This document shows, in pieces, positions 4,008 through 46,240 of a DNA stretch of 64,000 bases; position 1 is the stretch's first letter, and every line of letters starts with the position of its first letter. The DNA comes from Escherichia phage vB_EcoM_JS09. A model generated the notes under the pieces. It worked only from the letters and a program-made list of their open reading frames with translations, had not been told where the DNA came from and ran no database searches. The stretch lies in sequence record NC_024124.2; one strand, written 5' to 3'. The position numbers were made by a program, and so were the translations under genes.

Positions 4008-4036
4008 TTTACAACTAAGTAGGACTATGATATAGT
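4008..4036 (+). promoter_or_regulatory. early (sigma70-type) promoter with dyad symmetry around -10
   Basis: TTTACA-N17-TATAGT with TG at -15; 8-bp perfect inverted repeat TAGGACTA (4020..4027) / TAGTCCTA (4036..4043). Confidence 0.6.
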
Positions 4037-4062
4037 AGTCCTATCTAAAAGAGGATAACATC

Positions 4063-4326
4063 ATGAAATTTAAATTTTTCTACGCAAAACATAAAGTGAC
4101 CGGTGAGTTTGTTTCAATGTACAACACCGCAGATGACGAAGGGATGATTTATACCCATTTAGGTCTATCTCATTGGGACTCGGACGTGCCTTATATGTCA
4201 TCTGAAGCCGAAATAACTCGTCTGGTTAATGGACATATGAACGACCATTTTAATGTTATTCTTTCTAAAGACCTTAAAGAGGTTATCAACAAAGGATACA
4301 TGGAACTCGCGGAAGTTGAGATATGA
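4063..4326 (+). CDS. hypothetical early protein
   Basis: 87-aa ORF, GAGGA SD, preceded by early promoter 4008..4036. Confidence 0.5.
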   Translation: MKFKFFYAKHKVTGEFVSMYNTADDEGMIYTHLGLSHWDSDVPYMSSEAEITRLVNGHMNDHFNVILSKDLKEVINKGYMELAEVEI

Positions 4327-4409
4327 GTTCTAAAATGTGGATCGGAATATGGTTGCTTAGTATCCCAATGATTTGTATAATATTTTCAATTGTGTTGAGG
4401 TACTTATGA
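4323..4409 (+). CDS. small hydrophobic peptide (28 aa)
   Basis: ATGA overlap with the upstream stop; sequence MSSKMWIGIWLLSIPMICIIFSIVLRYL is a single predicted TM helix. Confidence 0.3.
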   Translation: MSSKMWIGIWLLSIPMICIIFSIVLRYL

Positions 4410-4516
4410 AAAATGCACTTCTTATTGTACTAAGAACAATTTGTGATACGGGTTTTTACATTGCATGTTCGTTCACTGGAACATGGTTGGCTTTAACATA
4501 TTTTAATGTAATTTAA
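4406..4516 (+). CDS. small hydrophobic peptide (36 aa)
   Basis: ATGA overlap with the previous ORF; GAGGT SD 5 nt upstream; hydrophobic. Confidence 0.3.
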   Translation: MKNALLIVLRTICDTGFYIACSFTGTWLALTYFNVI

Positions 4517-4519
4517 TTG

Positions 4520-4548
4520 TTTACATCACGGTAGGATTATGGTATAGT
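4520..4548 (+). promoter_or_regulatory. early promoter with dyad symmetry around -10
   Basis: TTTACA-N17-TATAGT; inverted repeat GTAGGA (4531..4536) / TCCTAC (4551..4556); near-copy of the 4008 promoter. Confidence 0.6.
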
Positions 4549-4576
4549 AGTCCTACTGAAACATGAGGAACACAAA

Positions 4577-4777
4577 ATGGCTAAGCTTTTTAAAGACGTT
4601 GAAATTGGTGAAAAATTTGTTCTGAATAATGGTCAGCAGCTTATTCGTGTAGCTTCTATCGCCGGACAAACTCATAACTGTATCGCCCCAACGTGTTGGA
4701 CCCGATTCTTTATTGAGGATGACACTGAATGTTTAACTGTTGAAGAGCTTTTTGAACGTTCTGATATGGCCGAATAA
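4577..4777 (+). CDS. hypothetical early protein
   Basis: 66-aa ORF, GAGGA SD, preceded by early promoter 4520..4548. Confidence 0.5.
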   Translation: MAKLFKDVEIGEKFVLNNGQQLIRVASIAGQTHNCIAPTCWTRFFIEDDTECLTVEELFERSDMAE

Positions 4778-4780
4778 AAT

Positions 4781-4809
4781 TGTACAAACTCTTGAGAGCA
4801 GAGTATAAT
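4781..4809 (+). promoter_or_regulatory. early promoter with dyad symmetry around -10 (upstream of ndd)
   Basis: TGTACA-N17-TATAAT; 8-bp inverted repeat TGAGAGCA (4793..4800) / TGCTCTCA (4809..4816); loop GAGTATAA. Confidence 0.6.
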
Positions 4810-4853
4810 GCTCTCATGGATTACAAAAACATTAATCAATTGAGGAAATTAGC

Positions 4854-5300
4854 ATGTCCAAATATTTAACTCGTAAAGACCTTCTGGCAGTTGGCGGTGA
4901 AGTTGTTGCAGTAGTTCGTAACGGCGAATACGGTTCTGAAGTTTCTAAAGAGTTTCGTTCTCGTGAAGGTTTTTACTTCTTTGTTAAAGGTTCATCTGAC
5001 TGGCGTCAAGTAGCAGCACGATTCTTTGTAGGACGTCAACGTTCTAAACAAGGGTTGGATGCAATTCTTTCTCACATTCGTCAAGGCCGTTCGCAACTAG
5101 CCCGTACTATGGGCACTAACAATATTGAATATGATGTAATCTTTGTTGCAGCTAAGAACATGAAACCACTGACCACCGGTTATGGTAAAGGTCAATTGGC
5201 TCTGGCATTCACTCGCAACCATACATCAGAATATCAAACACTCACTGAAATGAACCGTCTTCTGGCTGATAATTTCAAATTCATTCTGCAGAGTTACTAA
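4854..5300 (+). CDS. ndd: Ndd nucleoid disruption protein
   Basis: 148-aa ORF; matches recalled T4 Ndd (151 aa) over [11 protein letters not shown]...[14 protein letters not shown]...LADNFKF. Confidence 0.8.
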
Positions 5301-5352
5301 TTTATACGGGCCTATTAAGTTGGGCCTTTAATTTATTTTTGAGGTAATTAAA

Positions 5353-5502
5353 ATGGTAGCATGGATTATTGCATTGCTGTGTTGGTCGTTTTTATTCGTT
5401 AACACTTTAGTTACAGGCGAAACAACAGTATTTCAACAGGCTGTGTCACAAGGTACCTTAGCGGTCTTAGCTCTTCTTAACGTATTAAAAGGCGAGCAAT
5501 GA
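5353..5502 (+). CDS. small membrane protein (49 aa)
   Basis: GAGGT SD 7 nt upstream of ATG; hydrophobic N-terminus; lies where T4 has ac/52.1-type small genes. Confidence 0.35.
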   Translation: MVAWIIALLCWSFLFVNTLVTGETTVFQQAVSQGTLAVLALLNVLKGEQ

Positions 5503-5639
5503 TTAAGAAAATCTTAGCAGGAGCCTTCGGGCTCTTGTTGTTGCTTACGGTTCTGTACTATGGTGTGATGTTTGGACTAATCCAAGTAGTGCTTTTCATT
5601 TCAGATATTATAATGGCTATTCGTTCATTAATATGGTGA
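5499..5639 (+). CDS. small membrane protein (46 aa)
   Basis: ATGA overlap with the previous ORF; strongly hydrophobic; ends 5 nt before gene 52. Confidence 0.35.
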   Translation: MIKKILAGAFGLLLLLTVLYYGVMFGLIQVVLFISDIIMAIRSLIW

Positions 5640-5643
5640 AAAT

Positions 5644-6969
5644 ATGCAATTAAATTCTCGTAATCTAAAAAGTATTATTGATAACGAAGCCTTAGCATAT
5701 GCGATGTACACCGTTGAAAACCGTGCAATCCCAAACATGATTGATGGATTTAAGCCGGTTCAACGTTTTGTGGTTCATCGTGCGTTAGATTTGGCTCGTG
5801 GTAATAAAGAAAAATTTCATAAACTTGCGTCAATTGCAGGCGGTGTTGCAGATTTAGGTTATCACCATGGTGAATCTTCTGCACAAGATGCAGGTGCATT
5901 GATGGCTAACACATGGAACAACAACTATCCACTGTTAGATGGCCAAGGCAACTTTGGTTCTCGAACAGTTCAAAAAGCTGCAGCATCTCGTTATATTTTT
6001 GCTCGTGTAAGTAAAAATTTCTATAACGTATATAAAGATACTGAATATGCTCCAGCTCATGAAGATAAAGAACACATTCCACCAAAATTCTATCTTCCTA
6101 TTATTCCGACAGTTCTTTTGAATGGTGTCTCTGGTATTGCAACTGGTTACGCAACAAATATTCTGCCTCATAGTTTTAAATCAGTCAAAAAGGCTGTATT
6201 ACAAGCTCTTCAAGGTAAAAATGTCACTAAGCCAAAAGTTGAATTCCCGGAATTCCGTGGTGAAGTACATGAAGTTGATGGGCGTTATGAGATTCACGGA
6301 ACATATAAGTTCACATCTCGCACTCAAATGCAGATAACTGAAATCCCATATAAATTCGACCGTGAAACGTATGTGAGTAAGGTTCTTGACCCGTTGGAAG
6401 ACAAAGGTCTAATCTCATGGGAAGATGATTGCGGTGAACACGGCTTTGGGTTTAAGGTGAAGTTCCGTAAAGAGTACTCGCTTCCTGATGATGAAGAGCT
6501 ACGTCATGAAAAAATCATGAAAGATTTTAGTCTCATCGAACGTCGTTCACAAAACATCACAGTGATTAATGAAAAGGGTAAATTAGCTGTCTATGATAAC
6601 GTAGTGGACTTAATCAAAGATTTTGTTGAAGTCCGTAAGACTTACGTTCAGAAACGTATTGACAACAAAATCCTTGAATCTGAAAAAGCATTTAAACTGG
6701 CTTTTGCTAAGGCACACTTCATCAAAAAAGTTATCAACGGCGAAATTGTGATTCAGGGCAAGACTCGTAAAGCTTTGACTGAAGAGCTAGCACAAATCGA
6801 AATGTATAAAGAACATGTCGATAAACTGGTAGGTCTTAACATCTTCCATATCACTTCCGACGAAGCACGTAAACTAGCAGAAGAAGCTAAAGCTAAGAAA
6901 GAAGAAAATGAGTATTGGAAGTCTACTGATGTTGTGACAGAGTACACTAAAGACTTGGAGGCACTTTGA
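5644..6969 (+). CDS. 52: DNA topoisomerase II medium subunit
   Basis: 441-aa ORF matching recalled T4 gp52 (442 aa). Confidence 0.9.
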   Translation: MQLNSRNLKSIIDNEALAYAMYTVENRAIPNMIDGFKPVQRFVVHRALDLARGNKEKFHKLASIAGGVADLGYHHGESSAQDAGALMANTWNNNYPLLDGQGNFGSRTVQKAAASRYIFARVSKNFYNVYKDTEYAPAHEDKEHIPPKFYLPIIPTVLLNGVSGIATGYATNILPHSFKSVKKAVLQALQGKNVTKPKVEFPEFRGEVHEVDGRYEIHGTYKFTSRTQMQITEIPYKFDRETYVSKVLDPLEDKGLISWEDDCGEHGFGFKVKFRKEYSLPDDEELRHEKIMKDFSLIERRSQNITVINEKGKLAVYDNVVDLIKDFVEVRKTYVQKRIDNKILESEKAFKLAFAKAHFIKKVINGEIVIQGKTRKALTEELAQIEMYKEHVDKLVGLNIFHITSDEARKLAEEAKAKKEENEYWKSTDVVTEYTKDLEAL

Positions 6970-7045
6970 GTGCCCTAGCCTTAGGATTTCTCAGTGCAAT
7001 AGCTGCACTAGTGATTTGGCTATATTGGTTGGACAAACATGATTA

Positions 7046-7061
7046 GGGAGCCGAAGCTCCC
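7046..7061 (+). terminator. GC-rich hairpin after gene 52
   Basis: GGGAGC-CGAA-GCTCCC followed by TTTGTG; the UUCG loop is on the opposite strand. Confidence 0.5.
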
Positions 7062-7088
7062 TTTGTGCATTTTTTCCTCACAAAACAG

Positions 7089-7116
7089 TTTACACGTGCT
7101 TCAAACATGATATTAT
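7089..7116 (+). promoter_or_regulatory. early promoter with embedded MotA-box-like TGCTTCA
   Basis: TTTACA-N16-TATTAT preceded by TG; TGCTTCA at 7097..7103. Confidence 0.55.
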
Positions 7117-7164
7117 AGACCTATCAAAACAAAACAACCAAATTGGAGAAATAAAATGTCTAAA
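7097..7164 (+). repeat. direct repeat copy 1 (promoter-SD-start cassette)
   Basis: About 90% identical to 7419..7484, including the -10, SD GGAG and first codons ATGTCTAAA. Confidence 0.7.
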
Positions 7165-7371
7165 ATGAAATTAACCCAAAACACAACTACTCGTTTCGGT
7201 AAAGTTAAACCTGGTATGAATGCTCCCCGTAAAGCACTTGTTGAAGAATTAAATTTCTTAGAAGTTGAAATCAATTCTTTAGTGGTTCGCGGTTCAAATG
7301 GACATCATTTAGAAAAGCTTCGTTCTAAAAAGGCAAAACTTATTGGCCTTATTAAAGAAATGAGTTTGTAA
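7156..7371 (+). CDS. hypothetical early protein
   Basis: 71-aa ORF with GGAG SD; shares its promoter/SD/ATGTCTAAA start cassette with motA. Confidence 0.5.
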   Translation: MSKMKLTQNTTTRFGKVKPGMNAPRKALVEELNFLEVEINSLVVRGSNGHHLEKLRSKKAKLIGLIKEMSL

Positions 7372-7410
7372 ATTTTACCAGGGCTTTTGGAAAAAGAGCC
7401 CAAAATAAAG

Positions 7411-7438
7411 TTTACTTTTGCTTCAAACATGATATTAT
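7411..7438 (+). promoter_or_regulatory. early promoter with embedded MotA-box-like TGCTTCA (motA promoter)
   Basis: GTTTAC at 7410; TGCTTCA 7419..7425; TGATATTAT -10 at 7433..7438. Confidence 0.55.
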
Positions 7439-7484
7439 AGACCTATCAAAACAAATACTAATTTGGAGAAATAAAATGTCTAAA
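7419..7484 (+). repeat. direct repeat copy 2 (promoter-SD-start cassette)
   Basis: Near-identical to 7097..7164. Confidence 0.7.
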
Positions 7485-8108
7485 GTTACTTACATCATCA
7501 AAGCTTCTGAAAACGTTCTGAATGAAAAAACTGCTGCAATAATGGTTTATATCATTAAGAACAACTTCACCACTGCTGCCAATGTCCGTGAAGCTCTGGA
7601 AGCAGAATACAATGCATCGGTTGTTAACTCTAACATTGGTGTATTGATTAAGAAAGGTTTAGTCGAAAAATCCGGTGATGGACTTGTAGCAACAGGCGAA
7701 GCAATGGATATTATCCAAAAAGCTGCAGACCTATTTGCTCAAGAAAATGCTCCAGAACTTCTTCAGAAACGTAACACCAGAAAAGCACGTGGAGTTACTC
7801 CTGAAATGCATGAATTAGCAAACTTTGTTTTTGAAAATATTAAAGATAAAGTTGAAGTTAAAGAAATTGGTGAAAACCGTAGTAACTTAGAAGTTCGATT
7901 TGCAAAACGAGTTCTAGGTATTCGTCAGATCGAAATTCGTCGAGATGGCGCTCTTAGAATCTTTGCATACAATATGTCAGAAACTGAATCAAAGCTGTTT
8001 ACTTCTCTTGAAAATGATGTTAAGATTAAGATCGGTGGTAAATATACCTACATTGACTTCCCTAATGTGTCCAAAGAAATCATTACCCTTGTAACTAATG
8101 TACTGTGA
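7476..8108 (+). CDS. motA: MotA middle-transcription activator
   Basis: 210-aa ORF matching recalled T4 MotA (211 aa). Confidence 0.85.
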   Translation: MSKVTYIIKASENVLNEKTAAIMVYIIKNNFTTAANVREALEAEYNASVVNSNIGVLIKKGLVEKSGDGLVATGEAMDIIQKAADLFAQENAPELLQKRNTRKARGVTPEMHELANFVFENIKDKVEVKEIGENRSNLEVRFAKRVLGIRQIEIRRDGALRIFAYNMSETESKLFTSLENDVKIKIGGKYTYIDFPNVSKEIITLVTNVL

Positions 8109-8118
8109 GGAATACATA

Positions 8119-8463
8119 ATGAATAAGCTGAATATTATTAACGAACTTCGTAAATGTGCAGAACCTACTCAGGAAGGATGGGATATTTGGTACCATGGAG
8201 CTTATCTTGGAACTATCGTTAAAGTTAGAGCTGGGTTATATTTAATTATTCGCGAAAATTCTGAATTCCATAATGGAGTAGCTCCTGGTGGTATACGTAA
8301 AAACTTTATGGCCGCGATCAGTTCATTTGTTGATGCAGCTTACGAAATCTATAAAGAAGATTATAAAGAATATCAGCAGTCACAACCGGTTATTCGTTCA
8401 ATTGGTGTTAACAAAGCTCAGCAGAAAACTTTGTGGCAACGTATTAAAGGATGGTTTAAATGA
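8119..8463 (+). CDS. hypothetical protein
   Basis: Track start 8098 overlaps the motA end; ATG at 8119 has GAGGA SD. Confidence 0.5.
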
Positions 8464-8921
8464 AAACTTTTAAAGAACGTTTAGCTCTGTTAGATAAAGC
8501 TTTGTCGCGTGAGACTCCGGAAAGTCTGGCTGCTAAATTAGCTTCTTACGGTGGTGAATATACAGAACAAAATGTTTTAGATGAAGTTCCTGAAATCTGT
8601 TGGCAGACTCTGTATTGGGATGAAAACCAAAAGTATCAACGACGAATTGTCTGCGCAGCCAACCGTTTTAAATTAAAAGATGGACGAACTCTTATTATTC
8701 CAGGTGCTCGTCATTATTCTAAAGATATGGCAGAAGTTTTAGATGTAGTTAAACCTCAATTAGTTACTCAACAAGTTTGTGATGATGACCAAGGGTTTAT
8801 TGACCAATATAGTAATTATTGGACACGTGAAGAAGCAATGATTATTGCAACTTACGCTGGACAAGTACGTATTGAACGTGGTGGTAATGAAAAAGAACTT
8901 TACTCTGAGGACCTTTACTAA
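8460..8921 (+). CDS. hypothetical protein
   Basis: 153-aa ORF, ATGA-coupled to the upstream gene. Confidence 0.5.
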
Positions 8922-9202
8922 TGAATCTTAAACAACTCCAGATTGATGCTATTGAAGCCCACATTAATCATATCAAACGCCTGAATGCTATGATGGAAGA
9001 AAATTATGGTATGTATGCTAATCAGCCTGGTTGGGATGCTTTAGACCATCCTTATTTGGTTAATTTATGTAAAGGTGATACGTTAGCAATTATTCGTGAT
9101 GGGTTAAAACCTTTCTTGCGCGACATGTATATTAAAATGAACGAAGAAATTATTAGCTCATTGCAATATCAATTAAGGAAATTAGATGATGAGAATAATT
9201 GA
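8921..9202 (+). CDS. hypothetical protein
   Basis: 93-aa ORF, start overlaps the upstream stop. Confidence 0.5.
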   Translation: MNLKQLQIDAIEAHINHIKRLNAMMEENYGMYANQPGWDALDHPYLVNLCKGDTLAIIRDGLKPFLRDMYIKMNEEIISSLQYQLRKLDDENN

Positions 9203-9413
9203 TTCTAAAGCAGATTATTTTAATTCTGTTAATGATAAGAATAAAGCTTTAATTCGTCACTTTATTACTGAGATGGGATATACTAACTCTAAAGATTTGA
9301 AAGAGCACATTATCGAATGTTCTGTGGCTAAAAAGTTTTCTTTCACAGACAAATGTTTAAATGAGGTTATAAATCATTATGAACAATCTTGTAGCAAAAC
9401 ACGATTTCAATAA
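9186..9413 (+). CDS. hypothetical protein
   Basis: 75-aa ORF overlapping the upstream gene by 17 nt. Confidence 0.45.
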   Translation: MMRIIDSKADYFNSVNDKNKALIRHFITEMGYTNSKDLKEHIIECSVAKKFSFTDKCLNEVINHYEQSCSKTRFQ

Positions 9414-9487
9414 GGCTTCTGTCCATAAGGACAAGAAGAAATCAGAACTTCAATCTAAACGCAAACAAAAACATAAGGGTAAAGACT

Positions 9488-9787
9488 ATGCTTACTAAAA
9501 TCAAAGAAAATCCTGCCACTGAACTTGTTATTCGTTGTGAAGAACTTGCAGAGCTTTATCAGGTTAACAGAGAAGTGTGTCGTAGTGTTATCGTAGATAT
9601 GGAAGATGAAGTCTGTTCTCGTATTCCTTTTAGTGTCGATTTCAATCACATGAAGCCTGGTGAAATCACTATCGTCTTTGGTTCTGACTATACTGAAGAA
9701 CGGGCTCTTAATGTCCTAGAGTATGAAATGTCGTTCTTTGACATACAGGACTACATTGATAGTTATAAGGAACAATATGAGTCATAA
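9488..9787 (+). CDS. acidic hypothetical protein (at the T4 arn position next to asiA)
   Basis: 99-aa D/E-rich ORF; T4 Arn is a similar-sized acidic protein; assignment by synteny only. Confidence 0.4.
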   Translation: MLTKIKENPATELVIRCEELAELYQVNREVCRSVIVDMEDEVCSRIPFSVDFNHMKPGEITIVFGSDYTEERALNVLEYEMSFFDIQDYIDSYKEQYES

Positions 9788-9938
9788 TCTTCAGAACGTA
9801 GTAGAGGCCGAACGTGAGCGTGAGGCTTTAGTCTATAATGAACTATTAGTTCAATTCTTGGTCTTACACTCGTATGAACAGGAAGACTACACCAATTACG
9901 TTAAAAGCGTAGAAAAAGCCGTTTACAATCAACACTGA
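9776..9938 (+). CDS. hypothetical small protein (54 aa)
   Basis: Internal ATG of track ORF 9723..9938 (MSHNLQ...), overlapping the previous stop by 12 nt. Confidence 0.3.
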
Positions 9939-9950
9939 TAATGGTACTAT
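9922..9950 (+). promoter_or_regulatory. early promoter (asiA)
   Basis: TTTACA-N17-TACTAT with TG at -15. Confidence 0.55.
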
Positions 9951-9984
9951 ACTCCTATCAATTGAGTGGAATGAATAAAACGTT

Positions 9985-10257
9985 ATGAATAAAGACATTG
10001 AAATCGTACGTGAAATTATTACTATTGCTTCTATTTTGATTAAATTCTCTAGGGAAGATATTGTTGAAGACCGAGCAAGTTTCATCGGATTCTTGAATGA
10101 GATTGGAATTAAAAAAGATGGTCGGCAGCTAAATCAGAATTCTTTTAGAAAACTAATTACAAATTTAACTGCCGAAGAAAAGAAAACACTGATTAGTGAA
10201 TTCAATGAAGGTTTTGAAAATATTTATCGTCATTTAGCGATGTATTCTAACAACTAA
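9985..10257 (+). CDS. asiA: AsiA anti-sigma70 factor
   Basis: 90-aa ORF nearly identical to recalled T4 AsiA; own early promoter 9922..9950. Confidence 0.9.
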   Translation: MNKDIEIVREIITIASILIKFSREDIVEDRASFIGFLNEIGIKKDGRQLNQNSFRKLITNLTAEEKKTLISEFNEGFENIYRHLAMYSNN

Positions 10258-10917
10258 TTATTTAGCCCTTCCTAGTATTCGGACCGCTTGGTTGCATATA
10301 GCCGCTAAGCGATCTTCCTCAAGTATATTATTCCCCTTATACCAATACATCGTCACAGTTCCAGCATAGATGTTATCCAAATTAAAGTATGGACAACTAT
10401 ACATATAAGAAAGTTCGGCAGTCTTAGATTTTGTAGGCAAAAATGCAAATTCTGATTTAGATGAGAAATGACGGCCGCTTAAATGAACTATATATTCATT
10501 GGCCGTTTTATCCACCGGGAATCCGCCAAGGGACTTTTCAGAAATTGTGCTAGGTAGTTTGCCTTCATAAGCTATAAGGTCGACGAAATAATTTAAGTTT
10601 TTAGGTCTGAAAGAATACACAGCACTAAAATCTGCACCAGATGAGATATGAACTATTTGCAGTTGTTCTAGAGCCGCAGATTCAAAACGTAAAGCTCGTT
10701 CTTTTTGGATTATTTCAGTATAAGTATCATACTTAGCTCTTACATAATAATCCAGCAAAATACTTCCTTTGTACCATATTAGTGCCATTAGGAACAAAAG
10801 AATAATTACCGCTACTCGGGACATTAAAACCTTTCCAGTAGCGTTATCTTTGAAAATACGATCTAGCAACCCAAATAGAATATCACTAAGTGAAAATGAT
10901 ACTTTTGGTGTTGCCAT
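10258..10917 (-). CDS. t: holin T
   Basis: 219-aa ORF matching recalled T4 holin (218 aa); strong AGGAGG SD; late promoter 10938..10945. Confidence 0.9.
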   Translation of the reverse strand: MATPKVSFSLSDILFGLLDRIFKDNATGKVLMSRVAVIILLFLMALIWYKGSILLDYYVRAKYDTYTEIIQKERALRFESAALEQLQIVHISSGADFSAVYSFRPKNLNYFVDLIAYEGKLPSTISEKSLGGFPVDKTANEYIVHLSGRHFSSKSEFAFLPTKSKTAELSYMYSCPYFNLDNIYAGTVTMYWYKGNNILEEDRLAAICNQAVRILGRAK

Positions 10918-20537: not shown

Positions 20538-20541
20538 CCAG

Positions 20542-20570
20542 TTTACGCTTTCAAATGAGTGTGTTACTAT
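20542..20570 (+). promoter_or_regulatory. early promoter (rnh)
   Basis: GTTTAC at 20541; TGTTACTAT extended -10 at 20562..20570. Confidence 0.55.
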
Positions 20571-20602
20571 AGACAAGTTGACTAACTGAACAAGAGGTTC
20601 AT

Positions 20603-23791: not shown

Positions 23792-23813
23792 GGGAGACTT
23801 CGGTCTCCCTTTT
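23792..23813 (+). terminator. rho-independent terminator after gene 32
   Basis: GGGAGAC-TTCG-GTCTCCC + TTTTGAG. Confidence 0.75.
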
Positions 23814-23898: not shown

Positions 23899-24303
23899 AT
23901 GGAAATCGGAAAATCTTATATCATTAACCCTTTATTTAAAGATGACTTTGTTCAAGAAGCACCACACAATAACGCTAAGATGTTAAAATTGATTGAACTC
24001 CACGGGCCTAGTTTTGTTGTAAACGGAATGGAACCTGATTATGATAGCGATACGTCAAACGTAGTAAGTGTAACTATGGAAGATGGTACTGTATGTTCTG
24101 CCGGTGGTGAAATTGAAACTTATTTTGAGATTTATCCTGACGAGTTCAAATACTTTATTGAGTACTTTACTGAGGTAACTTTAGAAAAGCCTCAACCTAC
24201 TAACGAAGGTATAACTTTAGGTGTAACAAAAATCCATTGTATCGTAGATGAAACCAACGTCGACGAAATCATCAAACTTTTGCAAAAAACTTTTAAAAAG
24301 TAG
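23899..24303 (+). CDS. hypothetical protein (frd.3 position)
   Basis: 134-aa ORF, GAGGA SD, early promoter 23842..23869. Confidence 0.5.
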   Translation: MEIGKSYIINPLFKDDFVQEAPHNNAKMLKLIELHGPSFVVNGMEPDYDSDTSNVVSVTMEDGTVCSAGGEIETYFEIYPDEFKYFIEYFTEVTLEKPQPTNEGITLGVTKIHCIVDETNVDEIIKLLQKTFKK

Positions 24304-24332
24304 TGTACAATCAGATAGGGTTATGTTATAGT
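24304..24332 (+). promoter_or_regulatory. early promoter with dyad symmetry around -10
   Basis: TGTACA-N17-TATAGT; inverted repeat ATAGGG (24315..24320) / CCCTAT (24335..24340). Confidence 0.55.
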
Positions 24333-24367
24333 AGCCCTATCAAATCAAAAGTGAAGCGGAGAATAAA

Positions 24368-24616
24368 ATGAGATTGCAACGCCAGAGCATCAAAGATTCG
24401 GAAGTTAGAGGTAAATGGTACTTCAACATCGTCGGTAAAGACGCTGAACTCCTTGAACAAGCTGAAGAAGCTTTACGAGAAATGGGTTGGAACGAAGAAT
24501 GTGATGGATGTCCACTCTACGAAGATGGTGAAAGTGCAGGATTCTGGATTTATCATTCTGACGTCGATCAGTTTAAAGCTGATTGGAAAGTTGTTAAGAA
24601 AAATCTGAGGAAATAA
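24368..24616 (+). CDS. hypothetical protein (frd.2 position)
   Basis: 82-aa ORF, GGAG SD, early promoter 24304..24332. Confidence 0.5.
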   Translation: MRLQRQSIKDSEVRGKWYFNIVGKDAELLEQAEEALREMGWNEECDGCPLYEDGESAGFWIYHSDVDQFKADWKVVKKNLRK

Positions 24617-24618
24617 TT

Positions 24619-26304
<1,686 letters not shown>

Positions 26305-28903: not shown

Positions 28904-28955
28904 GACTTTTGATTATAATTTACTCATGGATGAGTTAAACTAAGTGAGAAATATA

Positions 28956-30160: not shown

Positions 30161-30571
30161 ATGAAAGATATTGCCGCCGAATATTCCTTTATTAAATATA
30201 CAGAATTGGAGCTATTAGAAGATGCAACAATTAAAACAGTTGATGTCCCTAATAAGAAAAATGTCATATACGCTATTGCTATAGATGACGAACTTGTGTA
30301 TATTGGTAAAACCAAGAATTTAAAGAAACGCATTAACTATTATCGAACAGCCATAAATCGAAAAGACCAGACTTCAGATTCAAGAAAATCTCTTATGATT
30401 TTGGATGCCTTAATGCAAGGCAAAAAGGTTGAATTCTGGGCCCGCCAATGTTTTGACCTTTCAGTCACCAACGAACTTGGTTCAATGACCATCGCAACAA
30501 TGGACCTTGAAGAACCGCTTTTTATCAAAAAGTTCAACCCGCCTTGGAATATCCAACATAAGAAAAAGTAG
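30161..30571 (+). CDS. denA: endonuclease II
   Basis: 136-aa ORF matching recalled T4 DenA (136 aa). Confidence 0.85.
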   Translation: MKDIAAEYSFIKYTELELLEDATIKTVDVPNKKNVIYAIAIDDELVYIGKTKNLKKRINYYRTAINRKDQTSDSRKSLMILDALMQGKKVEFWARQCFDLSVTNELGSMTIATMDLEEPLFIKKFNPPWNIQHKKK

Positions 30572-30600
30572 TTTACACACCACAAGGATTGTGGTACAAT
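30572..30600 (+). promoter_or_regulatory. early promoter (rnlA) with dyad in the spacer
   Basis: TTTACA-N17-TACAAT; 7-bp inverted repeat ACCACAA (30579..30585) / TTGTGGT (30589..30595). Confidence 0.5.
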
Positions 30601-31750: not shown

Positions 31751-31812
31751 TGGTTTACAAACACCAAGGATGGTGTTACTATGGCTTTTATCAACATCAC
31801 GAGGAGAAAATT

Positions 31813-32944: not shown

Positions 32945-33159
32945 CTAAAGAACAGCATGAATACATTAAAGGGCTTATCTATGAATCTGAAATGGCGGCC
33001 ATGATTTACGGGCGACAGATTCAACGATTAGAATCTTTGCCTCCGACTAATGACCGATTGTTAGTTCAGTCTCGTGCTAATCTGAAAAATGAATATCAGA
33101 ATAAGTGGGCAGTAGCGACTAAAGCTCTTCACGAGTATATTGAATCTTTAGTAAAATAG
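32935..33159 (+). CDS. hypothetical protein
   Basis: 74-aa ORF overlapping the o-spanin stop. Confidence 0.5.
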   Translation: MPMTKEQHEYIKGLIYESEMAAMIYGRQIQRLESLPPTNDRLLVQSRANLKNEYQNKWAVATKALHEYIESLVK

Positions 33160-33188
33160 TTTACAAACTCTCAGGAGCAGAGTATAAT
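33160..33188 (+). promoter_or_regulatory. early promoter with dyad symmetry around -10
   Basis: TTTACA-N17-TATAAT; inverted repeat AGGAGCA (33173..33179) / TGCTCCT (33188..33194); paralogue of the 4781 promoter with compensatory arm changes. Confidence 0.6.
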
Positions 33189-33216
33189 GCTCCTATGGAT
33201 AATTGAGGAAATCTAA

Positions 33217-35282: not shown

Positions 35283-35285
35283 TGG

Positions 35286-35314
35286 TTTACAACATGGTGG
35301 AGTTGTGATACTAT
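35286..35314 (+). promoter_or_regulatory. early promoter with dyad symmetry around -10
   Basis: TTTACA-N17-TACTAT with TG; inverted repeat GGTGGAGTT (35296..35304) / AACTCTACC (35315..35323), 8 of 9 complementary. Confidence 0.55.
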
Positions 35315-35342
35315 AACTCTACCAACAAATGAGGAAATAGAA

Positions 35343-35579: not shown

Positions 35580-35699
35580 TGAGAGCTATCTCATTACTAT
35601 CGAGAATGGTCATAAATCTGAGCACTACCAACTTAGCCTGTCTAATCCGGTTAAAGGTATTGTTGAATCAGAATCTGTTTATATCTCCTAAGGATTGTT

Positions 35700-36692
35700 A
35701 TGTTACCTGTCATCAGAAAACTTATTTCTCCAAAAGAACTGGCTGAGATTATTCCTTTGTCGGAAGCTTACGCATCACAAGTGGCTTCTCATCGCGAACA
35801 AGTTAATTCGATTATGAACGGTGAAGACCCACGCAAACTTATTGTTGTAGGTCCTTGTTCAATTCATGACCCTATTGCTGCTGTTGAATACGGCAAACGT
35901 CTGGCTGAACTTCAAACTCGTCTTCCTAATGTTCTGTTAGTGATGCGCGTTTATTTTGAAAAGCCTCGAACTACCGTAGGTTGGAAAGGTCTTGTAAATG
36001 ATCCATATCTTGACGGAAGTTTTGATATGAACCACGGTCTTATAGTTGCACGAACATTGTGTCGTAAACTTCTACGTATAGGACTTCCATTAGCAACTGA
36101 AGTATTAGACCCATTCACGATTAAGTATCTTTCTGGTATTTTCTCATGGGTTGCTATTGGCGCCCGTACGACTGAAAGTCAGACACATCGTGAAATTGCT
36201 TCAGGTCTACCGATGTGCGTAGGCTTCAAGAACGCAACCAATGGTTCTATTAAAGTAGCTACAGACGCGATGTATAGTGCCGCCTGGCCTCATCGGTATA
36301 TGGGTATGGACGTCGATGGTACTGTAGGCATTGTTGAAGCTGAAGGTAATCAGAATACGCATATCGTATTGCGTGGCGGGACCAACGGCCCGAACTATCA
36401 TTCTTCTGATATTCAAGAAGCTTCTAACAAAGCAAGGGCAGTAGGTCTGAATCATTATGTAATGGTTGACTGTAGCCATGCAAACGCTGATGGACATTAT
36501 AGCAATCAAATTGGTATTGGTAAAAATTTAGCAGCTAATGATTTGGTCAAAGGAATTATGATAGAATCATTCCTACATGAAGGAAATCAAAAAATTTCCG
36601 ATAATATGTCCTATGGCGTTTCCGTTACCGATGCGTGCATCAGTTGGGAACAAACTAAAGAGCTGTTAACTTATATTAATAAGGTTCAATAA
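35700..36692 (+). CDS. 3-deoxy-D-arabino-heptulosonate 7-phosphate (DAHP) synthase, class I (AroG/AroF/AroH-like)
   Basis: 330-aa ORF with AAGGA SD; hallmark motifs shared with E. coli AroG: VVGPCSIHD, RVYFEKPRTTVGWKGL, WVAIGARTTESQ, HIVLRGG, ESFLHEGNQ, VTDACISWE; the metal-ligand positions (Cys, His, Glu, Asp) are all present. Confidence 0.85.
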   Translation: MLPVIRKLISPKELAEIIPLSEAYASQVASHREQVNSIMNGEDPRKLIVVGPCSIHDPIAAVEYGKRLAELQTRLPNVLLVMRVYFEKPRTTVGWKGLVNDPYLDGSFDMNHGLIVARTLCRKLLRIGLPLATEVLDPFTIKYLSGIFSWVAIGARTTESQTHREIASGLPMCVGFKNATNGSIKVATDAMYSAAWPHRYMGMDVDGTVGIVEAEGNQNTHIVLRGGTNGPNYHSSDIQEASNKARAVGLNHYVMVDCSHANADGHYSNQIGIGKNLAANDLVKGIMIESFLHEGNQKISDNMSYGVSVTDACISWEQTKELLTYINKVQ

Positions 36693-38781: not shown

Positions 38782-38803
38782 GGGAGACTTCGGTCTCCCT
38801 TTT
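38782..38803 (+). terminator. rho-independent terminator
   Basis: GGGAGAC-TTCG-GTCTCCC + TTTTGTG. Confidence 0.75.
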
Positions 38804-39275: not shown

Positions 39276-39280
39276 AACAG

Positions 39281-39308
39281 TTTACTTTGGTACAGGTTAT
39301 GTTATTAT
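39281..39308 (+). promoter_or_regulatory. early promoter with 9-bp dyad symmetry around -10
   Basis: GTTTAC 39280; TATTAT 39303..39308; perfect inverted repeat GGTACAGGT (39289..39297) / ACCTGTACC (39311..39319). Confidence 0.6.
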
Positions 39309-39349
39309 AGACCTGTACCAACAAACAACTTAAACATCTGGAGAATAAA

Positions 39350-40365: not shown

Positions 40366-40395
40366 TTTACATCCAAGGACGGATTAGAGTATAAT
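40366..40395 (+). promoter_or_regulatory. early promoter
   Basis: TTTACA-N18-TATAAT. Confidence 0.45.
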
Positions 40396-40419
40396 GATTT
40401 CTTTAGTAAGTGGAAAAAT

Positions 40420-42082: not shown

Positions 42083-42091
42083 GGGATACTT

Positions 42092-42361
42092 ATGTTTGTA
42101 GTTCATGATATTACAGATGGCAAAAACACCACACGTGACTACGGTCACGTTAACATGTTCTTTCGAGACTGGCCGTTGTTTCGTTCAGTAAAAGACGCAG
42201 AAATATTTAAAGAGTGTGTTGAACAAGGGTTCATCTACATTTCAGAATACTATGTTGAAGGGCTCGGTAAATGGATTACCACTTATCAGAAAACTCTGAA
42301 ATCGCTTCTAGATGAAGTGGCTTATAATAGAACCGTAACCAAAATCGAGGACATCAAATGA
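42092..42361 (+). CDS. hypothetical protein
   Basis: 89-aa ORF coupled to the ligase start. Confidence 0.5.
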   Translation: MFVVHDITDGKNTTRDYGHVNMFFRDWPLFRSVKDAEIFKECVEQGFIYISEYYVEGLGKWITTYQKTLKSLLDEVAYNRTVTKIEDIK

Positions 42362-43851: not shown

Positions 43852-44039
43852 TGAAAGCTTATTTAGAAACAGTTATTGTAGCTAAGAAGGATGGTGGAGA
43901 TGTTTCCACCTCTTGCTCTCAGATTATATTAGATTTTCCTAATGAAAATTCGTATCGGGTTTTCGTAGATAATGTTAATGGGTACGAAAAAGGCCCTAAT
44001 TTTGAAGTTTATCGTACTTTGCTCCCGATTGTGGATTAA
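43851..44039 (+). CDS. hypothetical protein
   Basis: ATG overlapping the ligase stop (TAATG); 62 aa; terminator follows. Confidence 0.4.
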   Translation: MKAYLETVIVAKKDGGDVSTSCSQIILDFPNENSYRVFVDNVNGYEKGPNFEVYRTLLPIVD

Positions 44040-44058
44040 GAGCCTTCGGGCTCTTTTT
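44038..44058 (+). terminator. rho-independent terminator
   Basis: AAGAGCC-TTCG-GGCTCTT + TTT, overlapping the stop of the 43851 ORF. Confidence 0.7.
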
Positions 44059-44094
44059 GGCATAAATATAAATTATTACTAAAAGGAAAACACT

Positions 44095-46182
44095 ATGTCT
44101 GAACAATTAAATGAAGTGTTTGAATCTGAAGGCAGTCTTCCTGTCGTCAATTTGAACCCTAAAGCTAAAGTTCCACAAGTCTGGAAAATTGGTGATATCG
44201 ATACAAACATCGTAGTTCGCTTATTCTCTTATCTTTCTGAAGGCGATGCTGTAAAACAAGTTAAACTTGGCGACAAATATGCTCATGTTGTTATTATGAG
44301 TCTGTCTGAAAAGGGTAATCTCGCTGAATTGAAAAATGGCCTTGGTCCTGCTCCTATTGATGCAATCAACACCATTTTCAATACAGTGTATGAACAGGTT
44401 AAAGCTCTTCGTATGGATGCAGTTCTGTTCCGATTCCCTACCAAGAAATTGAAAGGACGTGGACAACAGCTTCAAACTCTTCTTGCTCGTTTAGTTTCTA
44501 CTAAAACCGGTGGTCGTTTTAAAGTATTGTCGGCAATGTATCAATTCACAGGTAAACACACCTATGTGATGATGGTTCGTAAAAATGCCAACATTGAAGA
44601 TATTAAAGGCATCCCTAACATTAACACAGAGTTGTACACGAAAGTAGATTCTGATGTTGGCGAAGTTTATGTGAGTAAAAAGACTGGCGAAAAGGTCACC
44701 AAAGAAACGGCTATCGCTGGTTCTATTGCTGCTGTAGAAGAAAAACGTAAAGATAAGCCTGTTATTGCTCGTACTAAAATTTCTCGTCGTGCTATTGCAG
44801 CAAGTCAATCTTTAGAAGCTGACCGCCAAGAAGGTGAGTTATTCCAGAAATACGAAAATTCTGCTAAAGAAGTTAGTGGCCCAGCTACGGCCGAATTACT
44901 TCCCGAAGCATATGAAATCGTACTAGCCCAAGCATCGTCCACAGCAAAAGGCACTTTAGTTGCTGATATCGAAAATAAGATTTATAATCGTATTGATGAA
45001 TCCTTTAGATTTGCTGATGAAGTTTCTTATGGTAGTGTTATTAAGCCAACTTTAGAAAAGTTTGCTAAGAAAATTAAAACCGAAAAAACAACATCTGTTA
45101 AAGCATTAGCTGCTTTTGTTGAAGCTGCAAATGAAATTGCAGACTCTATTAAAGACGAATGGTTTGAAGATTTTAGACGAGATAATTTCCAACTGACAGA
45201 CGACGTTTTAGCTGAAGTATCTGAAAAAACTTGGAAACAACGTAAATCAGCGTTCTTGTCTAATGTGATGTATACTTATGCACGAGAATCGGCCAGAGGC
45301 ACCTTTAATATAACAATGAATCGGGACCCTAAACAATACTCTGTTGCTGAAAAACGAGCTATTCGTGAATATGCCTCTTCTGCGTATACCGATATCAATA
45401 ATATGTTGTTAGGTCGTTATAAACCGGATTTTTACGATGTTGCAGATGAAGATGAAGTTAAACGCGCTATTGATGGTCTTGATTCGGCGTTTTTAAATGG
45501 AGACCGTTTACCTGAAGGACTAACGTTATATAGAGCTCAGTCTATCAGAATGCCTATTTACGAAGCAATGGTTAAAAATAAGGTATTCTACTTCAGAAAC
45601 TATGTTTCCACTTCACTAGCTCCTATTATTTTCGGTGGGTTTAAAGAGAACGTTGCCCTTGGACTTGCTCCTGAAGAAGTTCGCAAAGAGCTTAACATTG
45701 ATAATAATGACGAAGGTGTTACTATTTCTCCTAGTCAAGTAAGAACAGCTATGCATGCACCAGAACAAATCCGTGTTAACGTTGGATGGGCTATTGATGG
45801 CGCCCATAAAGTTAACGTGATTTATCCAGGACAGTTGAGTAATCACCCTAATGAGCAAGAAATTATTTTGCCTAGAGGCATTCTCTTGCAGATAAATAAA
45901 ATTACAGATGCGTCATCTGATACTGGTGCAGGTTTAGAATCCAACCTTAAATTTATTCAAGCTGAAGTCATGTCCTCAGACCAGTTAGATGAAGCTGTCA
46001 TTTATGATGGTGATGTTCTCATGGAAACAGGCGAGGTAGTTGCTATGACAGGTGAAATCGAATCAGATGAGCCGGTATCTTTTGCCTCATTTGTAGAAAA
46101 AACTAGTGCACCTAAAGGTTTGAAATTGTTAGCATCTTTAATGGATTTAGAATCAGTTCCGTTTAAATTTGTCCAAGGATAG
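44095..46182 (+). CDS. alt: Alt-like ADP-ribosyltransferase (packaged internal head protein)
   Basis: 695-aa ORF (T4 Alt 682 aa) between gene 30 and gene 54 as in T4; C-terminal R-S-E ART signature: LYRAQS, YVSTSLAP, EQEIILPRG. Confidence 0.7.
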   Translation: MSEQLNEVFESEGSLPVVNLNPKAKVPQVWKIGDIDTNIVVRLFSYLSEGDAVKQVKLGDKYAHVVIMSLSEKGNLAELKNGLGPAPIDAINTIFNTVYEQVKALRMDAVLFRFPTKKLKGRGQQLQTLLARLVSTKTGGRFKVLSAMYQFTGKHTYVMMVRKNANIEDIKGIPNINTELYTKVDSDVGEVYVSKKTGEKVTKETAIAGSIAAVEEKRKDKPVIARTKISRRAIAASQSLEADRQEGELFQKYENSAKEVSGPATAELLPEAYEIVLAQASSTAKGTLVADIENKIYNRIDESFRFADEVSYGSVIKPTLEKFAKKIKTEKTTSVKALAAFVEAANEIADSIKDEWFEDFRRDNFQLTDDVLAEVSEKTWKQRKSAFLSNVMYTYARESARGTFNITMNRDPKQYSVAEKRAIREYASSAYTDINNMLLGRYKPDFYDVADEDEVKRAIDGLDSAFLNGDRLPEGLTLYRAQSIRMPIYEAMVKNKVFYFRNYVSTSLAPIIFGGFKENVALGLAPEEVRKELNIDNNDEGVTISPSQVRTAMHAPEQIRVNVGWAIDGAHKVNVIYPGQLSNHPNEQEIILPRGILLQINKITDASSDTGAGLESNLKFIQAEVMSSDQLDEAVIYDGDVLMETGEVVAMTGEIESDEPVSFASFVEKTSAPKGLKLLASLMDLESVPFKFVQG

Positions 46183-46211
46183 TTTACAAACACATGGATG
46201 TGTGATACTAT
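46183..46211 (+). promoter_or_regulatory. early promoter with short dyad around -10
   Basis: TTTACA-N17-TACTAT with TG; GGATG (46196..46200) / CATCC (46212..46216). Confidence 0.5.
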
Positions 46212-46240
46212 CATCCCATCAACAACATGAGGAAAACGTT

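Follow-up and report, generated by a model that had tools for sequence, protein, structure and literature searches.

The window, by which we mean the whole stretch of 64,000 nucleotides analysed here (Escherichia phage vB_EcoM_JS09, an RB69-like T-even phage; NC_024124.2), carries 18 consensus early promoters on the + strand, all with a -35, a -10, a Shine-Dalgarno sequence and an ATG. Their form is GTTTAC-N17-19-TAnnnT, with TG before the -10 in most. A first-pass annotation, made from the sequence alone, had put the number of such promoters at about 17 and had reported inverted repeats around or next to the -10 at no fewer than nine of them, listing nine by position. Every one of the nine listed arm pairs is present at the coordinates given there, and the GTTTAC of the first promoter begins at 4007, one base before the start implied by its 4008. 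The arms are perfectly Watson-Crick in eight of the nine dyads, and the single mismatch in the ninth (35296-35304/35315-35323) is a G:T. An extra 7-bp dyad that had not been listed lies at 31760-31766/31771-31777. No Rfam family was found in the whole window in a scan at gathering thresholds. The features are as follows.

4007..4044, + strand: early promoter, -35 GTTTAC 4007-4012, -10 TATAGT 4031-4036, predicted +1 A4043; the upstream ORF stops at 3994
4019-4044, + strand: hairpin inside promoter 4007, perfect arms 4020-4027/4036-4043; RNA -13.2 kcal/mol, z -4.2
4519..4558, + strand: early promoter, GTTTAC 4519-4524, TATAGT 4543-4548; the small ORF before it ends at 4516
4529-4558, + strand: hairpin inside promoter 4519, 12 bp including a conserved U:G; -16.1 kcal/mol, z -5.3
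4780..4820, + strand: ndd promoter, TTGTAC 4780-4785, TATAAT 4804-4809; the upstream stop codon ends at 4777
4793-4800/4809-4816, + strand: arms of the ndd promoter hairpin; -13.9 kcal/mol, z -3.5
24303..24341, + strand: frd.1 promoter, GTGTAC 24303-24308 overlapping the upstream TAG stop, TATAGT 24327-24332
24314-24341, + strand: frd.1 promoter hairpin; -16.3 kcal/mol, z -6.0
30571..30600, + strand: rnlA promoter, GTTTAC 30571-30576, TACAAT 30595-30600
30579-30585/30589-30595, + strand: rnlA promoter hairpin, entirely within the spacer; -7.2 kcal/mol, z -1.9
31753..31782, + strand: alc promoter, GTTTAC 31753-31758, TACTAT 31777-31782
31760-31766/31771-31777, + strand: alc promoter spacer hairpin; -8.0 kcal/mol, z -1.8
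33159..33194, + strand: early promoter, GTTTAC 33159-33164 overlapping the upstream TAG, TATAAT 33183-33188
33173-33179/33188-33194, + strand: hairpin arms of promoter 33159; -12.2 kcal/mol, z -2.8
35285..35324, + strand: cd.2 promoter, orthologue of T4 Pe133295, GTTTAC 35285-35290, TACTAT 35309-35314
35295-35324, + strand: cd.2 promoter hairpin, 13 bp including G:U pairs; -16.9 kcal/mol, z -5.2
39280..39321, + strand: 30.7 promoter, GTTTAC 39280-39285, TATTAT 39303-39308
39287-39297/39311-39321, + strand: 30.7 promoter hairpin, perfect 11-bp arms; -17.9 kcal/mol, z -5.1
46182..46216, + strand: alt.-3 promoter, GTTTAC 46182-46187, TACTAT 46206-46211
46196-46200/46212-46216, + strand: claimed alt.-3 dyad, weak, 5 bp; -5.1 kcal/mol, z 0.03
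7045..7062, + strand: stand-alone hairpin AGGGAGCcgaaGCTCCCT followed by a T-rich tail, upstream of dyad-less promoter 7088
7381-7401, + strand: stand-alone hairpin before promoter 7410, same role as 7045
23792-23809, + strand: stand-alone hairpin before promoter 23841, same role as 7045
38782-38799, + strand: stand-alone hairpin before promoter 38837, same role as 7045
20541..20577, + strand: rnh promoter after divergent gene 34, with neither dyad nor upstream hairpin; z +0.75
61516, + strand: promoter also after a divergent gene, with neither dyad nor upstream hairpin; z +0.04

The last two served as negative controls. In the ATK47 record, terminators are annotated at the places equivalent to the stand-alone hairpins of the window.

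Geometry and significance of the promoter dyads

About half of the early promoters contain such a hairpin, which brackets the -10 in seven of them and sits in the spacer in two. The left arm is the spacer (about -26 to -16), the right arm is the discriminator and start region (-7 to about +3), and the loop is the conserved extended -10 (TGnTATAA), which places the dyad axis at -11.5. A shorter version of the hairpin fits wholly within the spacer. That the right arm lies mostly upstream of the transcription start, as had been argued earlier, agrees with the predicted +1 positions; RNA initiated by the promoter itself is predicted to begin within the final few bases of the right arm or at them, and would never contain the hairpin. 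No genome-wide T4 map of start or termination sites was found in the full-text literature searched.

The dyads exceed chance, as the first-pass annotation had supposed. When all promoter positions except the -10 hexamer were permuted, perfect stems of at least 7 bp were expected at 0.29 promoters; seven promoters have them, a number reached in 0 of 2000 shuffles. The whole window holds 93 such stems (63.9 +/- 7.7 in shuffles), and 8 of these fall inside the 18 promoter cores, which together make up 1.2% of the window and should contain about one. The excess in promoter cores is thus some 7-10 times chance. By RNA folding, hairpin stability is greater than in shuffled sequence at eight of the nine claimed sites, clearly at seven (-12.2 to -17.9 kcal/mol, z -2.8 to -6.0) and marginally at 30579, where the fold is about as weak as that of the other spacer hairpin, at 31760. 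The 5-bp dyad claimed at 46196 is indistinguishable from chance, and the seven dyad-less promoters give z from -1.5 to +0.75.

The embedded hairpins do not have the GC-rich stem, short loop and U-tract that define an intrinsic terminator, a combination found in the stand-alone hairpins 7045, 23792 and 38782. A U-tract rarely follows them (1.8% of 113 have 5 or more T among the 9 nt beyond the stem), and a consensus terminator scan of positions 3500-10500 called none of them on the + strand, so that efficient intrinsic termination is unlikely. The same scan lists the 4020-4043 dyad on the minus strand only.

Arm covariation, strand bias and promoter context

Arm sequences differ from promoter to promoter, and compensatory substitutions maintain their pairing. 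Orthologues were compared in six Mosigvirus loci (RB69, ATK47, three unannotated GenBank records and L005, the only close relative in IMG/VR) and in T4-type loci. In the paralogous promoters 4780 and 33159 of the window and motB of T4, flanks and loop are held in common and double compensatory substitutions occur at three stem positions. The frd.1 hairpin is a perfect 10 bp in RB69, with a T:G in the window and a G:T in ATK47 and in locus L060. The rnlA spacer hairpin is kept in T4, where it stands beside a MotA-box middle promoter. Pairs were counted in Python from ungapped sequences anchored on the -10; among 43 distinct arm pairs in the -11.5 register, a set preselected for pairing in which the diversity of pair types is informative and the percentage paired is not, single stem positions show 4-6 pair types. 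At position -18/-5, for example, the counts are CG 12, GC 11, TG 7, TA 7 and AT 3.

Where mismatches are flanked by Watson-Crick pairs, the sense strand has G:T or T:G in 28 cases and A:C in one. Reduced to independent clusters, the numbers are 12 G:T and 1 A:C (binomial p = 0.0017), against a ratio of about 1:1 expected from base composition. The sense strand also folds better than the antisense strand at tight promoters, in which at most 12 nt separate the -35 from a co-directional stop codon (-10.06 vs -7.92 kcal/mol, p = 6e-10), whereas the two hardly differ at other promoters. These data indicate that selection acts on the folded sense single strand. Tolerance of G:T is also compatible with a hairpin in single-stranded DNA of the sense strand.

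In the window, a hairpin is embedded in 9 of the 11 tight promoters; those at 40365 and 46182 are without a convincing one. Four promoters with gaps of 38-118 nt have no embedded hairpin and instead have a stand-alone hairpin upstream, and the two that follow divergent genes have neither. The same contrast was measured over 274 distinct promoter regions from the window, T4, RB69, ATK47 and 55 T4-like loci of IMG/VR. Folding energy was -10.06 kcal/mol at tight promoters (n = 141), -3.72 at loose ones (n = 114) and -4.82 at divergent ones (n = 19), with p = 3e-14 overall and p = 1e-8 in the non-Mosigvirus subset by itself, although these multi-locus p-values are optimistic because genes were called crudely and many of the loci share ancestry. 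The difference persists for promoters with at most one mismatch from consensus, and 33 of 35 loci from other T4-like phages obey the rule. Within the tight class the -11.5 register is the commonest (35 of 141), any other being used by 0-11. A hairpin with a T-run upstream of the -35 is present at 71% of loose co-directional junctions and at 0% of tight ones. Nearly all co-directional and convergent junctions in the window have hairpins, and none of the five divergent junctions does; hairpins mark gene 3' ends in general.

A probable read-through RNA hairpin and its alternatives

The reading that we favour, with a probability of roughly 0.7, is that the dyads encode an RNA hairpin belonging to the 3' end of the upstream cistron, which forms only in transcripts that read through from that cistron. 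In compact early regions the upstream stop codon abuts or overlaps the -35 and would leave no room for an intercistronic hairpin; lacking free space, the hairpin would be written into those positions of a sigma-70 promoter that are free to vary, the spacer and the discriminator. Read-through into these promoters and formation of the hairpin in vivo are presumed here. The hairpin likely acts as a transcription attenuator or as a barrier to 3'-exonuclease decay of the upstream message, and at roomier junctions the stand-alone GC-rich hairpins with a T-run would do the same job. Some 35 bp would then serve two codes at once, one read as DNA by RNA polymerase and the other a structure in the RNA of the preceding message.

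A narrower version, which we hold only tentatively, is that the embedded hairpin is punctuation specific to read-through RNA, a decay barrier or processing signal that makes each early cassette of T4-like phages an autonomous mRNA unit, and is neither a terminator nor a recombination signal. Under that rule every co-directional junction would have exactly one 3' hairpin, dual-coded with the sigma-70 promoter where the junction is compressed. More boldly, the same sense-strand fold could arise in single-stranded DNA during recombination-dependent replication and occasionally flip or convert the -10 loop. The T4 record at an orthologous promoter contains a 14-bp 'inverted complement' correction, which is a hint for loop flipping.

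It is unlikely that the dyad is kept mainly as a recombination substrate, with the PeSL as a 'mobile cassette' that shuffles flanked ORFs between promoters. Mini-circles and crossovers in or beside the stem-loop have been shown for PeSLs in RB49/phi1 (PMC2839356), the window ORF 7156-7371 is flanked by a repeated promoter of ~86 bp and is absent from RB69, and another RB69/ATK47 indel ends 15-40 nt from promoter 23841. Both of these promoter-associated indels, however, are at promoters without an embedded dyad. PeSLs are associated with small ORFs being inserted, deleted or replaced in hyperplastic regions; here gene content differs from that of five Mosigvirus genomes by about six events, a small sample, two of which end within 56 nt of early promoters, both dyad-less; the differences at 24616-24856 and 35588-36689 and an 863-bp insert in locus L061 lie away from promoters. 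Recombination depends on copies having the same sequence, whereas the arms vary more than any other part of these elements, and both the G:T bias of the sense strand and the dependence on the orientation of the upstream gene would be left unexplained.

Another proposal is a DNA-level element acting on the promoter itself, a symmetric protein site, cruciform or melting aid that tunes initiation by sigma-70 RNA polymerase. The first-pass annotation had preferred DNA-level symmetry to an RNA hairpin; it considered no RNA other than that initiated at the promoter, and missed transcripts that read through from the upstream gene. The position of the right arm upstream of +1 suits such an element, as does the location of the dyad axis (-11.5), where the transcription bubble has its upstream edge. 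A further point in its favour is that the arms, folded as single-stranded DNA, are still more stable than shuffled sequence, at -5 to -10 kcal/mol. Yet the proposal is disfavoured by the variable arms, the G:T bias, the greater stability of the sense fold and the dependence on context, and we consider it improbable. The arms have no common recognition sequence and are unconserved between promoters, which rules out a sequence-specific protein site; a dyad-symmetric operator was rejected for want of a conserved half-site, given 43 distinct arm pairs and 4-6 pair types per position. Promoters equally close to consensus, in roomy junctions or after divergent genes, have no dyad, so the dyad is not needed for promoter function. 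Neither the asymmetry of G:T over A:C (12 vs 1 clusters) nor the sense-strand advantage is expected of a duplex or a two-strand cruciform, a role in promoter or duplex DNA does not predict dependence on a co-directional gene ending at the -35, and 8-nt loops on stems of 7-11 bp would probably make poor cruciforms.

Slightly less probable still is translational discrimination, by which the hairpin would lower downstream translation from read-through RNA relative to promoter-initiated RNA. A promoter within a hairpin, whose own transcript is without the 5' arm, is indeed the arrangement of T4 e, soc, 49 and I-TevI (PMC3014915, PMC2988022), but here 10-30 nt separate the end of the right arm from the Shine-Dalgarno sequence downstream of it. 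Sequestration of the ribosome-binding site was examined by partition-function accessibility in read-through and primary transcripts and was rejected, as this does not separate dyad from dyad-less promoters. It is very improbable that the dyads have no function, having arisen by chance, by descent from duplicated promoters or through quasipalindrome-templated mutation, for which T4 is a classic system. Paralogy among promoters (4007/4519/24303 and 4780/33159) does mean that nine sites are not nine independent events, and the 5-bp dyad at 46196 is at chance level. Against a lack of function stand the excess of dyads over both shuffled sequence and the remainder of the window, the compensatory changes seen among paralogues and among orthologues, the strand-specific G:T bias and the context dependence in 33 of 35 loci.

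Comparison with known systems

Coliphage N4 virion RNA polymerase uses early hairpin promoters with a short inverted repeat centred near -12; there the template DNA strand folds into the hairpin, which is recognised by a polymerase that the phage brings along. The promoters of the window, in contrast, are of sigma-70 type, and the G:T bias puts the fold on the non-template (sense) strand. A hairpin promoter of the N4 type was rejected, as G:T mismatches in the sense strand are A:C on the template strand.

In T4 e, soc, 49 and I-TevI the promoter lies inside a hairpin that sequesters the ribosome-binding site (PMC3014915, PMC2988022). These genes have in common with the window a promoter within hairpin-coding DNA and a hairpin that is possible only in read-through transcripts. 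They differ in that their promoter is late and the 3' arm sequesters the ribosome-binding site, whereas the promoters here are early and the site is not sequestered. Intrinsic terminators of T4, with a GC-rich stem, a 4-nt loop and poly-U (PMC2988022), resemble the embedded hairpins in standing at the 3' end of a cistron. Unlike them, the embedded hairpins have loops of 6-8 nt that hold the -10, lower G+C and no U-tract; hairpins of the intrinsic type replace the embedded form in the window wherever room exists (7045, 23792, 38782).

The closest likeness is to the promoter-early stem-loop (PeSL). Early sigma-70 promoters with stem-loops were described in RB49/phi1 by Arbiol et al. 2010 (PMC2839356), who proposed the stem-loop as a terminator or attenuator; one RB49 stem-loop, the only one so demonstrated, lowered lacZ expression by roughly the same amount as rrnB T1. 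Comeau et al. 2014 (PMC4122927) extended PeSLs to T4/PST, with the motif AGNA-loop-TCNT and the promoter form TTTACW-N17-TAYWAT, and also to KVP40/nt-1. The first-pass annotation had noted a resemblance to PeSLs, and it was right to do so, as the published motif fits the AGGA...TCCT arms of the window. Like PeSLs, the sites have a strong early promoter of sigma-70 type that matches TTTACW-N17-TAYWAT, with an A/T-rich upstream region, and a stem-loop that lies in the interval from -35 to -10, overlaps one of these boxes or adjoins the promoter, and whose stems include G-T pairs. They are likewise intergenic, with a stop codon at the 5' end (-1 to 12 nt from the -35) and a Shine-Dalgarno sequence and ATG at the 3' end (55-74 nt from -35 to ATG). 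The stems of RB49 PeSLs are polyG/polyC and stronger, whereas those of the window are of mixed sequence, 7-13 bp, without a U-tract. Terminator activity and mini-circles have been shown for RB49/phi1 only, and, unlike in PeSL cassettes, no stem-loop is embedded in the promoters at the clear promoter-flanked indel of the window. PeSL-like elements are also known from the internal-protein loci of T-even phages (Repoila et al. 1994, as cited in PMC2839356) and, in that citing account, are described for those loci only; according to it they share with the window T4-type early promoters and weaker, AT-richer stem-loops of variable size without polyG/polyC.

The embedded hairpin with its promoter is thus a PeSL-type element rather than DNA-level symmetry, and not a new kind of system. 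The rule that embedding goes with a -35 abutting the upstream stop codon is not stated in the texts of PMC2839356 or PMC4122927. It gives an annotation rule for T4-like genomes (embedded if the stop abuts the -35, stand-alone with a T-run if there is room, absent after divergent genes) and bears on how mRNA decay and the early and delayed-early phases of expression are modelled in T-even phages, as well as on the design of phage gene cassettes. Seen in this way, the stem-loop of a PeSL would belong to the 3' end of the gene upstream and would not be a feature of the promoter or of recombination.

Gene map and promoter dyads

The source phage is an RB69-like T-even member of the genus Mosigvirus. 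Across 6 kb the window shares 98% identity with vB_EcoM_TU01; in the td region its identity is 100% to DCP548 and 94% to RB69. Gene order was assigned through synteny with the annotated relatives RB69 and ATK47.

Gene blocks of the window
First block, + strand: rIIA, rIIB, ndd, 52, motA, asiA
Between the asiA and rnh blocks, minus strand: tail-fibre block
rnh block, + strand: rnh, 32, frd, td, nrdAB, denA, rnlA, alc, pseT, cd, 31, 30.x genes, 30, alt

A 330-aa ORF at 35700-36692 is shared with ATK47, whose annotation calls it phospho-2-dehydro-3-deoxyheptonate aldolase (AroG-like), and may be an auxiliary metabolic gene; RB69 lacks it, and in that comparison it falls within a 1.1-kb segment present only in the window. 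Between nrdA and nrdB, where T4 carries the homing-endonuclease gene mobE, EP02SG has 863 bp that are missing from the window (28896-28941).

Early promoters, named here by the start of the -35 element, were defined as GTTTAC (or a 1- or 2-base variant), 17-19 nt and TAnnnT, followed by a Shine-Dalgarno sequence and ATG. The + strand has 18 of them, against the approximately 17 of the first-pass annotation, and all nine inverted repeats that it placed around or beside the -10 element were recovered, eight of them perfect and one (35296/35315) with a single mismatch, a G:T. Such dyads had been judged rare by chance, and they are: when everything except the -10 was shuffled, perfect stems of at least 7 bp were expected in 0.29 promoters and are seen in 7, a number reached in 0 of 2000 shuffles. 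They are also concentrated at promoters, since the window holds 93 perfect stems of at least 7 bp (63.9 +/- 7.7 when shuffled) and 8 of these lie within promoter cores, which make up 1.2% of its sequence. Folded as RNA, seven dyad sites reach -12 to -18 kcal/mol (z -2.8 to -6.0), and two hairpins located in the spacer reach -7 to -8 kcal/mol, 30579 with z of about -1.9 and 31760, which had been overlooked, with z of about -1.8. For the 5-bp dyad at 46196 the fold is no better than chance (z 0.03), and z is near 0 for the seven promoters that have no dyad. The dyads are thus confirmed as real and non-random, with the exception of 46196.

In the main geometry the dyad brackets the -10, with its axis at -11.5: the left arm occupies the spacer (about -26 to -16), the extended -10 (TGnTATAA, -15 to -8) forms the loop, and the right arm starts with the last T of the -10, covers the discriminator and stops at about +1 to +3. 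The second geometry has both 7-bp arms inside the spacer around a 3-4-nt loop, with the first T of the -10 serving as the right arm's final base. Arm placement would be set by constraint, the spacer and discriminator presumably being the only positions of a sigma-70 promoter that are free to vary; for this reason the arms would fall there and the conserved TGnTATAA would become the loop. Similarly, a spacer of 17-18 nt limits a hairpin confined to it to about 7 bp, the size seen in the second geometry. The predicted +1, 7 nt past the -10, agrees with the name of the T4 promoter at the orthologous cd.2 site, Pe133295, and is located at or within the final few bases of the right arm. Because of this, RNA initiated at the promoter itself does not contain the hairpin, which is possible only in RNA arriving from upstream.

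Upstream gene and free space

In 11 window promoters the -35 abuts or overlaps a co-directional stop codon (gaps of -1 to 12 nt; hereafter tight promoters), and 9 of the 11 have an embedded hairpin, the exceptions being 40365 and 46182; this count includes 4519 on the assumption that the small ORF 4407-4516 is real. That ORF would encode a hydrophobic product of about 36 aa (MKNALLIV...) and ends 2 nt ahead of the -35 of 4519. The dyad is absent from the four promoters with 38-118 nt to spare (7088, 7410, 23841 and 38837), each of which has instead a separate GC-rich hairpin ahead of the -35.

Stand-alone hairpins upstream of promoters with spare room
23792 and 38782: GGGAGACttcgGTCTCCC, then TTTT
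7045: AGGGAGCcgaaGCTCCCT

Neither a dyad nor an upstream hairpin was found at the rnh promoter (20541) or at promoter 61516, both of which follow a divergent gene. Promoter 9921, inside or beside the small ORF 9723-9938, has merely a weak 5-bp match.

Where genes of the window are 20 nt or more apart, nearly every co-directional or convergent junction has a hairpin of -10 kcal/mol or better, whether or not an early promoter is present, and none of the 5 divergent junctions does; the hairpin is thus a feature of the upstream gene's end. UUCG or CGAA tetraloops are common in junction hairpins (7045, 11487, 15465, 23792, 38781, 39722, 44038, 55109, 58502 and 61855).

The same pipeline (promoter pattern plus an ORF with ATG and Shine-Dalgarno; gene calling was crude) was applied to T4, RB69, ATK47, three more Mosigvirus records and 55 IMG/VR T4-like loci retrieved via RnlA. 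In 274 distinct promoter regions, mean MFE was -10.06 kcal/mol for tight promoters (n=141), -3.72 for those with spare room (loose, n=114) and -4.82 for those after a divergent gene (n=19; p = 3e-14). The difference holds with Mosigvirus removed (p = 1e-8), remains for promoters within one mismatch of the consensus (-10.5 vs -4.2), and between tight and loose promoters goes the same way in 33 of 35 loci. In this wider set, too, the -11.5 register is the commonest: it accounts for 35 of 141 promoters and every other register for 0-11. A hairpin and T-run precede the -35 at 71% of loose co-directional junctions and 0% of tight ones; among embedded hairpins, just 1.8% have a T-run behind them. 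The computation shows that the embedded hairpin goes with the 3' end of an upstream gene running in the same direction, and that where room exists an ordinary terminator-like hairpin replaces it.

Arm sequences and the strand that folds

Arm sequences vary from promoter to promoter. The ndd promoter (4780), promoter 33159 and the T4 motB promoter have common flanks and loop (AAACTCT...GAGTATAA...TGGA), and their stems, GAGAGCA/TGCTCTC, AGGAGCA/TGCTCCT and GGGACCA/TGGTCCC respectively, show double compensatory changes relative to one another at three positions. The stem at the frd.1 promoter is a perfect 10 bp in RB69, with one T:G in the window and a G:T elsewhere in the stem in ATK47 and the related locus L060; that at the cd.2 promoter is perfect in L060, with a G:T in the window and a T:G in T4. 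As many as six pair types occur at single positions among the 43 distinct arm pairs of the -11.5 register. It is the structure that is kept and not the sequence, which rules out a shared protein recognition sequence.

T4 rnlA is driven by a middle-type promoter with a MotA box (TGCTT; about 25883-26203 of the T4 locus, L003), and the window has an early GTTTAC promoter at 30571-30600. The spacer hairpin beside the -10 is kept in both (CCACAtggagTGTGG in T4, ACCACAAggaTTGTGGT in the window) and persists through a change of promoter class. At T4 133300-133313 (L003 30233-30246), orthologous to window 35302-35316, the T4 record describes the 14-bp stretch TTGTGATATTATAG as 'inverted complement of previously reported sequence; corrects the early promoter Pe133295'. 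This stretch corresponds exactly to the loop of the cd.2-promoter dyad GGTAGAG...CTCTACC plus its two inner pairs, and the correction may reflect an old sequencing error at the hairpin or a true flip between the inverted repeats.

Starting from perfect Watson-Crick stems, single mismatches were counted where two or more additional Watson-Crick pairs lay beyond them, a choice that favours neither mismatch type. On the sense strand there are 28 G:T or T:G mismatches and 1 A:C, or 12 and 1 after clustering of related promoters (binomial p = 0.0017), where base composition predicts about 1:1 (fG x fT 0.059; fA x fC 0.057). At tight promoters sense RNA folds at -10.06 and antisense at -7.92 kcal/mol (Wilcoxon p = 6e-10), with scant difference at the remaining promoters. 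Selection on the fold therefore acts on the sense single strand, which encodes the hairpin; this indicates RNA or, as the less simple option, single-stranded DNA of the sense strand. The G:T bias and the fold stability speak against duplex symmetry, against a two-strand cruciform and against an N4-like template-strand hairpin.

Function and relation to PeSL elements

We consider it probable, at roughly 70%, that the dyad is an RNA 3'-end element. The hairpin would form in read-through RNA and would either attenuate transcription or block 3'-to-5' decay of the upstream message following cleavage in the downstream leader; we make no firm choice, although the missing U-tract makes the decay block the likelier of the two.

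Recombination between repeated promoters may well occur, yet as a substrate for it the dyads stay unexplained. One indel of the window resembles a PeSL event: a direct repeat of about 86 bp (7079-7164 / 7401-7484, 84-89% identity), comprising early promoter, leader and first codons (MSK), flanks ORF 7156-7371, and RB69 has a single copy of the repeat and lacks the ORF. By its arrangement this looks like gain or loss of a PeSL-style cassette, but neither flanking promoter has an embedded dyad, and the remaining indels lie away from promoters. An element acting on the promoter at the DNA level, the first-pass reading in preference to an RNA hairpin, is not supported, as arm diversity, strand asymmetry and context dependence all contradict it. 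Translational control of the read-through RNA likewise finds no support in RBS accessibility. Chance, ancestry or quasipalindrome mutation predict neither the compensatory changes, the G:T bias nor the context rule.

The dyads have published counterparts, and the resemblance to promoter-early stem-loops (PeSLs) noted in the first-pass annotation is correct: the window's promoter hairpins have the structural features of PeSLs and are PeSL elements. Arbiol et al. 2010 (PMC2839356) described RB49 and phi1 early promoters with stem-loops that mostly lie in the -35/-10 interval or overlap the -10, marked G-T pairs in the stems, placed an upstream stop codon at one end of the element and a downstream Shine-Dalgarno and ATG at the other, and proposed that the stem-loops are terminators or attenuators of upstream transcription. 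Similar but weaker AT-rich stem-loops at T-even early promoters are there credited to Repoila et al. 1994. In the sections consulted, neither Hinton's T4 review nor that of Uzan and Miller discusses the dyads. In T4/PST, Comeau et al. 2014 (PMC4122927) reported PeSLs with the promoter TTTACW-N17-TAYWAT and stems AGNA...TCNT, and both forms match the window. Relative to the portions of the PeSL papers compared here, the lack of U-tracts, the dominant -11.5 register, the strand-specific G:T test and the context rule are new.
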